Below are positions 1-5,152 of a stretch of 12,853 nt of DNA, piece after piece. Position 1 is the first letter of the stretch. Each line of letters opens with the position of its first letter. Source of the DNA: a virus. The notes beneath the pieces were generated by a model. It made no database searches and was not told the origin of the DNA. It saw only the letters and a list, made by a program, of their open reading frames with translations. A program made the position numbers and the translations under genes. Location of the stretch: UHGV virus genome UHGV-1704341; one strand, 5' to 3'.

Positions 1-423
1 TCCCGCCAAAGCAGTGGCTGTTGTGGTGGGGTTGTCACTCAGGCGTATGGTCAACCTGACAATCCGGTGTCCTCAACGGGGAAAGAGTAACCCCGCCATA
101 CTTACCGCCGCGCCATTTCGCGGATTACCACAACGCTGAGAGCACTTAGCCAGTTCGGCGCCACACTTTGTCTCGGCTCCATAAATGCTCTTATCGTTGC
201 ACCCTGGTCTCTTCCCAGGCGTCAAACCGAATCGCCACGCTGGTTAGGCGTCTTATCAGCATCATCATTGACTTGCACATTCCGGCTACCTGGTTTGTTT
301 GCCCGAGCAAGGAGTGGATTGTCCCCTTTAACGTCTCCAGACCGCTAACGACGCATGTGCCATACGCCGTGTTACAACCAAACTTTGTTTGAATCTTGCC
401 TGTTGCATGTTTCTTTTGGATAC

Positions 424-451
424 ATTATGTATCCCAAAGGTACATTGTCAA
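424..451 (-). promoter_or_regulatory. Putative leftward early promoter (PL-like) overlapping short palindromes
   Basis: On the minus strand: TTGACA (plus 446-451), 16-bp spacer, CATAAT (plus 424-429). Short palindromes tacattatgta (421-431) and tacattgta (441-449) overlap the hexamers. Position just beyond the repressor terminator matches lambdoid PL/OL layout. Confidence 0.4.
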
Positions 452-453
452 GT

Positions 454-478
454 ATAAAAAAACCTGCCGAAGCAGGTT
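454..478 (-). terminator. Intrinsic terminator downstream of the repressor gene
   Basis: Inverted repeat aacctgc/gcaggtt (461-467 and 472-478) with a 4-nt loop that reads UUCG on the minus strand, followed on the minus strand by a run of 7 U (plus 454-460 is A-rich). Lies immediately 3' of the repressor stop at 491. Confidence 0.6.
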
Positions 479-490
479 CATAAATATTGA

Positions 491-1165
491 TTAGGTCTTT
501 ATTTTGTATCTTCTTGGTTTTCCCGAGAAAATCACTGTACCAATTATAGAGCAATTACCGTTGATCTTAATGTAAGGTTCAGGCCAGTTTGGGTTTAATG
601 CTTTGAGGTAACGCTGTGTTCCATCTTCTATCAACCGCTTGAAGGTGGTTTCGCCTGTATCGTGCATCAATGCAATAACGTCGTCACCGTGGCAGGCAGG
701 GACTTCAGGATCAACAAAAATCATGTCTCCTGGGCGGTACTCATCAATCATTGAATCACCAATCACCCGCAAGATATAAGTCATTTCACCACAGGGTACA
801 GGGCAGGGATAAGTTTCTGCTGTGCTCAAATCAACCTCAGAATAACCAACTTCTTTCCATGCTCCGGCCTGTACCCATGATATGACAGGGACTAACGTTA
901 TTTGTTTGTTAGTGATTGAAACATCAGGTTTTTTTGTGATGTTCGTTGTCTGGTGTTCTTGATCAAGCCATCCGACAGGCAGGTCGAAACATTTTTCGAT
1001 GTGCCGTGCCATGCTGTCACCGATATTTTTAGTTGCACCATCTCCCATAAACCTGCTGGTCTGGGTCGGCTCGCGATCAATCATGGTGGCAAAGGAAGAA
1101 TTCCCGCCAACACCATCTCTCAGTTTTCTGGCGTTAGACCGCCGGATGTCATGGACGGATGTCAT
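491..1165 (-). CDS. CI-type phage repressor (N-terminal DNA-binding region plus C-terminal S24 LexA-like peptidase domain)
   Basis: 224-aa ORF. C-terminal half carries the S24 autocleavage signature (VIGDSM, then an ...IFV.P... block) typical of CI/LexA/UmuD. N-terminal part ends ...LPVGWLD as in phage repressor HTH domains. Divergent to the Cro-like gene across an operator region. The start codon lies inside a 13-bp tandem duplication (see findings). Confidence 0.88.
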   Translation of the reverse strand: MTSVHDIRRSNARKLRDGVGGNSSFATMIDREPTQTSRFMGDGATKNIGDSMARHIEKCFDLPVGWLDQEHQTTNITKKPDVSITNKQITLVPVISWVQAGAWKEVGYSEVDLSTAETYPCPVPCGEMTYILRVIGDSMIDEYRPGDMIFVDPEVPACHGDDVIALMHDTGETTFKRLIEDGTQRYLKALNPNWPEPYIKINGNCSIIGTVIFSGKPRRYKIKT

Positions 1166-1268: not shown

Positions 1269-1382
1269 ATGAAAGCGTATTGGGACTCTTTAACCAAAGA
1301 ACAGCAGGGCGAGTTGGCCGGAAAAGTTGGCTCAACACCAGGCTACTTACGGCTGGTTTTCAATGGTTATAAACTGACTTAA
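1269..1382 (+). CDS. Short Cro-like HTH protein (37 aa)
   Basis: ATG at 1269 preceded by GGAGG (1254-1258). Product MKAYWDSLTKEQQGELAGKVGSTPGYLRLVFNGYKLT has an HTH-like core. First gene of the rightward operon, divergent from the repressor. Below the 60-aa cutoff of the ORF track. Confidence 0.5.
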   Translation: MKAYWDSLTKEQQGELAGKVGSTPGYLRLVFNGYKLT

Positions 1383-3790: not shown

Positions 3791-4443
3791 TGAGTAATAA
3801 ATATTGCCAGGCGCTGGTGGAACTGCGGAACAAACCAGCCCATGAACTGAAGGACGTGGGCGATCAGTGGCGCACGCCGGACAACATTTTCTGGGGAATT
3901 AACACCCTGTTTGGCCCGTTTGTTCTGGATCTGTTCACTGACGGTGATAACGCCAAATGTGCTGCGTATTACACGGCGGAAGACAACGCGCTGGCGCATG
4001 ACTGGTCAGAACGTCTTGCGGAGCTTAAAGGTGCTGCCTTTGGTAATCCCCCATACAGCCGCGCCAGTCAGCATGAGGGGCAATACATCACCGGCATGCG
4101 TTACATCATGAAGCATGCCAGTGCCATGCGTGATAAGGGCGGGCGCTATGTTTTCCTGATCAAAGCTGCCACCAGCGAAGTTTGGTGGCCGGAAGATGCA
4201 GACCATATTGCTTTTATTCGCGGGCGTATTGGTTTTGAACTGCCTGCCTGGTTTATCCCGAAGGATGAGAAGCAGGTGCCGACAGGAGCGTTCTTCGCTG
4301 GTGCTATTGCTGTTTTCGACAAGACCTGGAAGGGACCGGCAATCAGCTACATCGGGCGCGATGAACTTGAGGCATGTGGTGAGGCCTTTCTGGCGCAGGT
4401 TCGCCAGCAGGCGGAAAAACTGGTCAGGGAGATGGCGGCATGA
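3790..4443 (+). CDS. Phage-type N6-adenine DNA methyltransferase (Dam family)
   Basis: Contains ...W.TP...F... near the N-terminus, NAKC..YYT, and the catalytic motif FGNPPYS, which are typical of phage Dam-like methyltransferases. Translationally coupled on both sides. Confidence 0.75.
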   Translation: MSNKYCQALVELRNKPAHELKDVGDQWRTPDNIFWGINTLFGPFVLDLFTDGDNAKCAAYYTAEDNALAHDWSERLAELKGAAFGNPPYSRASQHEGQYITGMRYIMKHASAMRDKGGRYVFLIKAATSEVWWPEDADHIAFIRGRIGFELPAWFIPKDEKQVPTGAFFAGAIAVFDKTWKGPAISYIGRDELEACGEAFLAQVRQQAEKLVREMAA

Positions 4444-4766: not shown

Positions 4767-5152
4767 AGTTGATCCTTCCTTTCCCGCCCAGTGTGAACAC
4801 GTACTGGCGACACCCCAACAAAGGGGCATTTGCTGGTAAGAGCCTGATAAGCGAGGCGGGGCGAAAATTTCAGAGCGCGGCGTGCGCAGCAATAGTTGAG
4901 CAGTTACGTCGTCTGCCGAAACCAACGTCGGCACCTGCTTCAGTGGAGATCGTGTTGTTTCCTCCGGATAACCGGATCCGCGATCTGGACAACTATAACA
5001 AGGCTCTGTTTGACGCCCTGACCCACGCGGGTGTGTGGGAAGACGACAGACAGGTGAAAAGAATGCTGGTGGAGTGGGGACCGGTTATCCCGAAAGGGAA
5101 GGTCGAGATCACTATCAGTAAGTATGAGAAACCGGCGGGTGCAGCCGCCTGA
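4763..5152 (+). CDS. rusA: RusA-family Holliday junction resolvase
   Basis: 129-aa product with the RusA-like N-terminus (LPFPPSVNTYWRH) and the conserved acidic block (RDLDNYNKALFDALT...W.DD.QV). Typical nin-region gene. Confidence 0.85.
   Translation: MKLILPFPPSVNTYWRHPNKGAFAGKSLISEAGRKFQSAACAAIVEQLRRLPKPTSAPASVEIVLFPPDNRIRDLDNYNKALFDALTHAGVWEDDRQVKRMLVEWGPVIPKGKVEITISKYEKPAGAAA

Follow-up and report, generated by a model that had tools for sequence, protein, structure and literature searches.

A conserved pseudoknotted RNA directly behind the early-left promoter of lambdoid prophages, with a possible put-like role in antitermination

To our knowledge, no RNA other than put is established as able to reprogram bacterial RNA polymerase on its own. 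Other phage RNAs are comparable in setting or in complexity: P4 CI and P1/P7 c4 are tRNA-like immunity RNAs processed by RNase P, and GOLLD and ROOL, which are large and complex phage-borne RNAs of unknown function, often adjoin tRNA genes. The put RNA is about 70 nt long and forms two stems (consensus GAACGGCGCG..CCAUGCGUCGG..GGCGGG.UCAGG..CGGCAAU). In its cryo-EM structure, a CAUG bulge forms an interface to the polymerase, and the A9-G35 pair beside it serves as the platform for the beta' zinc-binding domain (PMC9378689). Many lambdoid phages lack N, and the question of how transcription of their early operons gets past terminators has been raised for phage LLS; a put-like RNA has been suggested for N-less lambdoid phages with yfdP/yfdQ early-left operons (PMC12315714).

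The DNA analyzed here (the window, 12,853 nucleotides of virus genome UHGV-1704341) covers the immunity and early region of an e14/SfV/cdtI/Ayreon-type lambdoid prophage. Its cI-like repressor gene, ymfK (491-1165, minus strand), is followed by its intrinsic terminator (452..479, minus strand), which was identified in a terminator scan and is annotated as a terminator in phage Ayreon. Next comes the PL-like early-left promoter that a first-pass annotation of the sequence had proposed. This promoter is real: TTGACA-16-CATAAT, with the -35 element at 451-446 and the -10 element at 429-424 on the minus strand, has 11 of 12 matches in a promoter scan, and operator palindromes flank and overlap it (inverted repeat 407-425/427-445). 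Transcription probably starts at about 417, leaving a short 5' leader (373..417, minus strand, by direct reading) ahead of the RNA described below. Relative to SfV-type phages there is a mosaic junction at ~394, where their match to the window starts and from which it runs rightwards. Among E. coli relatives, strain FDAARGOS_497 (locus L002) is the best; it is 100% identical over window positions 128-389 and was used for reading the leader past the window's left end (L002 coordinate = window coordinate + 4998, so that L002 5449-5422 is window 451-424). There, ~590 nt without annotated features separate PL from the first annotated gene, yfdP.

The first-pass annotation had found no clear coding frame in this leader, and we agree. 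The small open reading frames on both strands have no matches in Pfam or PHROG, indels among homologues have lengths that are not multiples of three and break the frames, and no reading frame with coding support was found between PL and the terminator. The accompanying statement that no minus-strand frame of any length is contained there is not literally true, as there is a 50-aa frame with a TTG start (73-225) and others of 26-39 aa.

Instead of a protein, window positions 129-372 (minus strand) almost certainly encode a conserved, pseudoknotted, non-coding RNA that consists of a 175-nt core and a ~20-bp closing hairpin, H8. We are equally confident that it is the first part of the early-left operon to be transcribed from the repressor-controlled PL, and there is very little doubt that a tRNA-like module and then a strong intrinsic terminator lie between it and the first gene of that operon (yfdP in relatives). 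The core (198..372, minus strand, ~175 nt) was delimited by alignments, covariation and a covariance-model match (142.5 bits, E 3e-48), which is the only copy that the model finds in the window. In an alignment of 43 sequences, 97.2% of the cells in core helices are standard pairs, compared with 28-45% when the 3' partners are slid by 1-3 columns. Two-sided (compensatory) changes occur in 12 of the 31 core pairs (100 cells), a result matched by none of 500 shuffles, and extension of the alignment by 22 genome loci left the covariation picture unchanged. Single-sequence minimum free energy z-scores are unremarkable (-0.5 and -1.5), so the case for structure rests on covariation. Conserved G.U pairs in the core (e.g., 49:110 in 43 of 43 sequences) show that the minus strand is the functional one.

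Helix H1 (365-369 with 349-353, minus strand, as are all elements that follow) is closed by a G-C pair in 22 sequences and by an A-U pair in 21. Its loop GCACAU (360-355) may pair with AUGUGC (275-280, read from 280 to 275) in a possible pseudoknot, PK1. Both sequences are invariant, so PK1 is without covariation support; both of the patterns used for collection required them, and they are retained also in four relatives found by BLAST alone. Supported by covariation are helix P3b/P4 (337-345 with 285-293), which encloses a variable arm P5 (294-336), helix H5 (248-251 with 237-240, loop CUAACCA at 241-247) and helix H7 (215-219 with 203-207, loop GAAGAGA at 208-214). Bases 242-245 of the H5 loop pair with 225-228 to form pseudoknot PK2, in which a C-G pair in 38 sequences is replaced by A-U in five, the window being among the latter. 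The core thus contains at least one supported pseudoknot.

This RNA fold is new. The window gave no match to Rfam 15 at the gathering threshold, nor did the core at E values up to 5-10; this is weak evidence of novelty because Rfam has no put model (HK022 scores no match). The searchable literature yielded no description, and an earlier report may exist in certain older phage papers that lie outside that search. The RNA is unannotated in the phage records inspected, including mEp460.

The closing hairpin H8 spans 129..201 (5' strand UGCAACGAUAAGAGCAUUUAU at 201-181, 3' strand CUAAGUGCUCUCAGCGUUGUG at 149-129, minus strand), is visible in the DNA as the inverted repeat 131-148/182-199, and carries a variable apical insert (150-180). 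Across 97 distinct tails, the H8 duplex has a mean RNAduplex energy of -24.6 kcal/mol compared with -16.0 kcal/mol for shuffled strands. Compensatory variants are many, for example GAGAGCGCACUU/GAGUGCGCUC and AAGGGUGUUUG/GAACAUCCUU. H8 is a candidate RNase III site.

Hairpins of the H8 type (..ACAAC..AAAGCGC.. insert ..GUGCGCUUUC..GUUGUGG) recur around the core in L020, L009, L039, L094 and other loci. They are placed upstream of the core, in tandem downstream, and past terminators, like punctuation between RNA modules. In locus L053 (384-430; also in L091), the apical insert of H8 weakly matches the hammerhead type I model (28.7 bits against a gathering threshold of 34, E 0.004), with the conserved CUGAAGAG...GAAAC letters present. 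Inserts of this type may hold a self-cleaving processing site.

Past H8, after the ...GUUGUGG sequence, 28 of 126 loci have a genuine tRNA-Arg(UCU), and the others a tRNA-sized module with an acceptor-like closing helix. In the window this is domain III (20..134, minus strand), which is cloverleaf-like in its minimum free energy fold: the closing helix GUUGUGGU (134-127) pairs with ACCACAAC (27-20), corresponding to the inverted repeat 20-27/127-134, and encloses three hairpins. The first of these, at 108-123 in the position of a D-arm, has a 5-bp stem and the 6-nt loop AAAUGG. In other classes of downstream sequence the same slot holds GCGCA-GGCUGA-UGCGC or belongs to a genuine tRNA-Arg. The likeness of domain III to a cloverleaf is confined to the predicted fold, and neither ARAGORN nor the Rfam tRNA model identified a tRNA in the window. 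The domain III slot and terminator of two relatives resemble STnc100 (RF02076) over the full model, but the scores of 39.5 bits (SfV) and 45.8 bits (L107) are below the gathering threshold of 47; a search of the window's own class gave no match. The likeness to STnc100 is limited to the module past H8, and that family covers the downstream module rather than the core.

The first bases of the 5' stem of an intrinsic terminator, GGCGG (window 7-3), lie at the left end of the window (1..7, minus strand), and the remainder, beyond the window's end, was read in L002. In the window's family the terminator has the form GGCGGUACCAG-loop-CUGGUACCGCU-CUUUUUACA, with a stem of -21.2 kcal/mol. A strong intrinsic terminator follows the tRNA-like module in nearly all non-P1 classes of downstream sequence. 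Claims about terminators rest on direct reading and folding, since our own terminator counter was uninformative (89 loci versus 81 on the control strand). By eye, the terminator hairpin UUGGCGGUACCAGUUU resembles the 3' part of DicF; the Rfam DicF match in SfV is at chance level (15.7 bits, E 2.1). Past the terminator U-tract, direct reading of L002 4955-4850 (minus strand) shows ACAAAACAGAGAAGAGC pairing with GUUCUUCUCUGUUUUGU ~60 nt downstream. This further long leader hairpin, which precedes the ribosome-binding site of yfdP, is also conserved among phages of the SfV type (module B).

A BLAST search with only the leader as query identified window ~128-385 as a recurring module, with 79-83% identity in two other settings. 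In epsilon15/phiV10-like podoviruses the module lies directly 5' of tRNA-Arg, and in P1, P7, D6 and SJ46 it lies between trnI and ban. Its orientation follows the local sense of transcription in all three phage contexts. A two-block pattern retrieved at least 120 IMG/VR contigs with 105 distinct cores (42 clusters at 92% identity). Applied to species-representative genomes, the pattern matched 23, and the covariance model confirmed all but one, a Vicinamibacterales metagenome-assembled genome (MAG); the confirmed hosts are 20 Enterobacteriaceae, one Erwinia and one Bacillota MAG contig. By BLAST, the RNA is present in 1834 of 5426 complete E. coli genomes (34%), with 554 of the places on plasmids. 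In 50 sampled RefSeq records there are no annotated features under the RNA match, adjacent tRNA-Arg excepted.

A tRNA on the same strand directly adjoins the RNA in 46 of 126 loci: either a tRNA-Ile(CAU) whose end is 23 nt ahead of the TGGCACATG motif, or a tRNA-Arg(UCU) directly after H8. Outside P1, nearly all loci have an operator-bearing promoter 35-120 nt ahead of the RNA, which comes just past the terminator of a repressor gene. At least five operator types, representing several immunity types, are joined to it. In P1 the RNA is in mid-operon, without an obvious terminator after it.

Several individual loci have unusual features. Locus L021 contains two tandem core copies (4802-4960 and 3995-4155, minus strand) with an opposite-strand reading frame between them, and in the second copy the otherwise invariant GGUAGCCGG block is altered (GGAAGCUGG). 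The MAG contigs labelled Vicinamibacterales and Bacillota are L269, which the model did not confirm, and L270. The latter (1.7 kb) is probably mis-binned enterobacterial phage DNA, because it is the top model match overall and has an HK022-type PL. In a phiV10-like locus (L003 2880-2925), the RNA/tRNA-Arg cassette of epsilon15-like phages is situated between the terminase and portal genes, preceded by TTGACA..TACCTT, which the palindrome TTACCTTTCAGGTAA overlaps. This suggests that the cassette is a repressor-controlled moron.

How the RNA compares with put was considered in terms of position, neighbours and structure. The first-pass annotation had proposed comparing the leader with nut and put elements, which proved useful; the likeness to put is in slot and in the base of stem I. 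Like put, the RNA lies directly after PL in lambdoid phages without N, past the early promoter and before terminators. One identical PL/operator module of the HK022 type (AAATGTACTTTTGGTACTTTACAT..AACTATTGGTACAT) leads into put in HK022 and L189 and into this RNA in L270 and L039, with the junction just past the promoter. The repressor genes upstream of put and of this RNA are homologous. Genuine put RNAs, too, have a tRNA-like module of this kind behind them in several loci: L144 has GAATGCGCAGGCTGATGCGC, 20 identical bases in common with class b, and a closing helix that covaries, and the module of L246 has a canonical T-arm. A single copy on the PL side has a precedent in the HK639 record, where one putL-like RNA and no putR is annotated.

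The structural likeness amounts to ~15 bases at the foot of stem I of put. There, A9, C10-G14, C26-G29 and C30-G34 of put are identical, G.U wobble included, to the A-CGGCG-(loop)-CAUG-CGUCG of H1 and its surroundings. We estimate the chance of such a shared motif, corrected for the many possible split motifs, at about 0.01. A search of IMG/VR with the split pattern ACGGCG-N-CATGCGTCG was noisy, and the class with 11-nt spacing was genuine put. The covariance model of the core gave no match on HK022 and HK639 (put) or on SfV. Unlike the two-stem put, this RNA is about 250 nt long, has at least seven helices and a different overall fold, and has neither a counterpart of put stem II nor the conserved G partner (G35) for A9. 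In size it is 2-3 times as large as put. The stem-I loop pairs elsewhere in both, with the 5' tail in put and here possibly with the downstream AUGUGC. A further difference from put is that this RNA occurs in P1-like and epsilon15-like phages as well.

Because a strong terminator stands ahead of the early-left genes and the intervening leader encodes no protein, termination must be suppressed by some means. The exchange on the PL module, the tRNA-like module after put and the shared stem-I base suggest that the RNA itself acts like put. Our preferred reading, which we hold tentatively and at somewhat less than even confidence, is that it is a put-like, cis-acting processive antiterminator, comparable in function to the HK022/HK639 put RNAs and perhaps distantly related to them. 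Once folded, the nascent RNA would attach to the polymerase that is transcribing it by way of a put-like module made up of the CGGCG/CGUCG stem with its G.U wobble, the adjacent CAUG and the preceding A. The polymerase would then need no N protein to pass the terminator ~300 nt downstream and enter the early-left genes. H8 (by RNase III) and the tRNA-like module (by RNase P) may be processing sites that free the RNA from the remaining transcript.

Possible as well, and put forward with more reserve, is the broader proposal of a second, much larger class of polymerase-modifying antiterminator RNAs, distantly related to put via the docking stem, in lambdoid, P1-like and epsilon15-like phages across the Enterobacteriaceae and unannotated in about a third of complete E. 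coli genomes. If true, this would explain early-left operon expression in N-less lambdoid phages. An RNA that occupies the slot of put, but resembles it in structure at the polymerase-contact stem alone, would open that question to direct test and reveal the essential features of put. Whatever the mechanism, this is a complex, pseudoknotted and highly covarying RNA that occurs in three unrelated phage lineages and is missing from Rfam.

Some observations count against a put-like function. Sharing a slot with put in mosaic phages is not proof of the same function. The RNA is in mid-operon in P1 and often adjoins real tRNA genes, and CRISPRi at the P1 genes flanking it caused no plaque defect (PMC10695390). 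The layout of SfV (L129 1100-2200, minus strand) is PL, orf33, an H8 remnant, domain III and the same terminator, with no core. It looks like a precise deletion of the core, as the 5' flank ...GACAGGCA is joined to the H8 start CAUAACAG. The gene orf33, inserted upstream, encodes a protein of 98 aa (PHROG 3195, unknown function) that is not Arg-rich. Because SfV is viable and keeps the terminator without the core, the core is either dispensable or accessory in SfV, or replaced by orf33.

The SfV and P1 data are also consistent with an accessory role of another kind, in which this is a stable, processed phage RNA. RNase III would cut it out at H8, and RNase P or tRNA processing at the neighbouring tRNA or tRNA-like module, after which it would act in trans on some protein or RNA of host or phage, with tRNA biology and counter-defence as examples. 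We consider this the main rival of the put-like reading, and less likely. It would suit the adjoining same-strand tRNAs, the occurrence in three unrelated phage types (mid-operon in P1 included), the RNA's own downstream terminator, the recurrence of H8-type hairpins between RNA modules, and a size and pseudoknots beyond what put needs. A target or partner is not evident, however, and a trans-acting role leaves transcription from PL past a strong terminator, the exchange with put on an identical PL module and the shared stem-I motif without explanation. The adjacency of tRNAs does not separate this reading from the put-like one, because tRNA-like modules also follow genuine put. GOLLD and ROOL offer a parallel as phage-borne RNAs, but this RNA is much smaller, is confined to enterobacteria and matches neither in sequence or model. 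The RNA could also be a component of an immunity circuit of the P4 CI or P1 c4 type that acts through termination, with the tRNA- or STnc100-like module as the immunity RNA and the core as its target or antagonist, a reading that we regard as improbable. PMC3475682 cites Roberts et al. (2007, J Gen Virol 88:3187) for ncRNA-mediated superinfection immunity in SfV, which is reported to be termination-based, and SfV has PL, domain III and the terminator in common with the window's family. Like P4 CI and c4, domain III is a cloverleaf-like module from an early leader beside terminators. Moreover, nine nucleotides of the core (GGCGUAUGG, 368-360, H1 strand and loop) are perfectly complementary to CCAUACGCC (50-42) in the third hairpin of domain III. 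This complementarity was seen in the window's class but not in class b, and with about 0.1 expected it is near chance; no antisense target pairs proved to be conserved, there is no Rfam C4 match at E values up to 5-10, and SfV itself lacks the core. The Pas sRNAs, also considered, are unrelated and located in the late region.

Two further explanations were considered. The first-pass annotation had seen in this leader a weak nutL-like motif, GTGCTCTCA (145 to 137 on the minus strand) followed 13 bases on by the hairpin ccgcg-aaatgg-cgcgg (123 to 108), and these positions are correct. A Nus-factor site, either a lambda-type nutL read by N or an rrn-like boxA recruiting NusB/NusE, is nevertheless very improbable. 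The motif shares with lambda nut the position in the PL leader and a UGCUCU hexamer, common to leader and boxA, that is followed by a small hairpin. Closer boxA matches occur in the same strand of some members (CGCUCUUUUUGA in L019), and the exact rrn boxA UGCUCUUUAACAA lies just past the core in L080, with a near match in L027. Within two mismatches of the lambda boxA CGCTCTTA, though, the window has 76 occurrences compared with 89 +/- 9 in shuffles, so the resemblance of GTGCTCTCA is no better than chance. Set against the boxA forms CGCUCUUA and UGCUCUUUAACAA, TGCTCTCA has two mismatches, and its strand, part of the 3' strand of H8, is base-paired; the pairing is kept by compensatory changes where boxA-like letters are lost (variants GAGCGCCGUUUCC and ACAUCCUUACC). 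The hairpin at 108-123 belongs to the cloverleaf-like module, and its AAAUGG loop, 13 nt from the boxA-like sequence, is not a GNRA-like pentaloop. The annotation had already remarked on the lack of a nutR-like partner, and indeed no copy of the RNA is found on the PR side. Its suggestion to look further left for an N-like, Arg-rich gene led, in relatives, to yfdP (PHROG 204, unknown function), yfdQ (DUF2303) and other genes, none of them N-like. With no N-like gene to the left and boxA letters that are not conserved, the N-type nut reading is largely refuted. Least credible of all is a DNA-level element (e.g., a single-strand initiation signal) or a small protein gene. The hairpins could form in single-stranded DNA of the same strand, and both strands contain reading frames of 26-74 aa, but the orientation follows local transcription and adjacent tRNA genes in three phage contexts, and the frame-breaking indels and the lack of Pfam or PHROG matches speak against a gene.

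In L080 and L027, a small hairpin and then a boxA take the place of H8 just 3' of H7. The boxA is the exact rrn sequence in L080 and the near match UAGCUCUUUAAUAA in L027, which provides a link to Nus-factor sites.

On the other side of the repressor gene, the cro-like gene ymfT (window 1269-1382) has a 61-bp internal deletion (junction 1373/1374) relative to FDAARGOS_497 and phage Ayreon. The deletion shifts the frame and truncates Cro to 37 aa, and thus this prophage is probably defective for the lytic switch.
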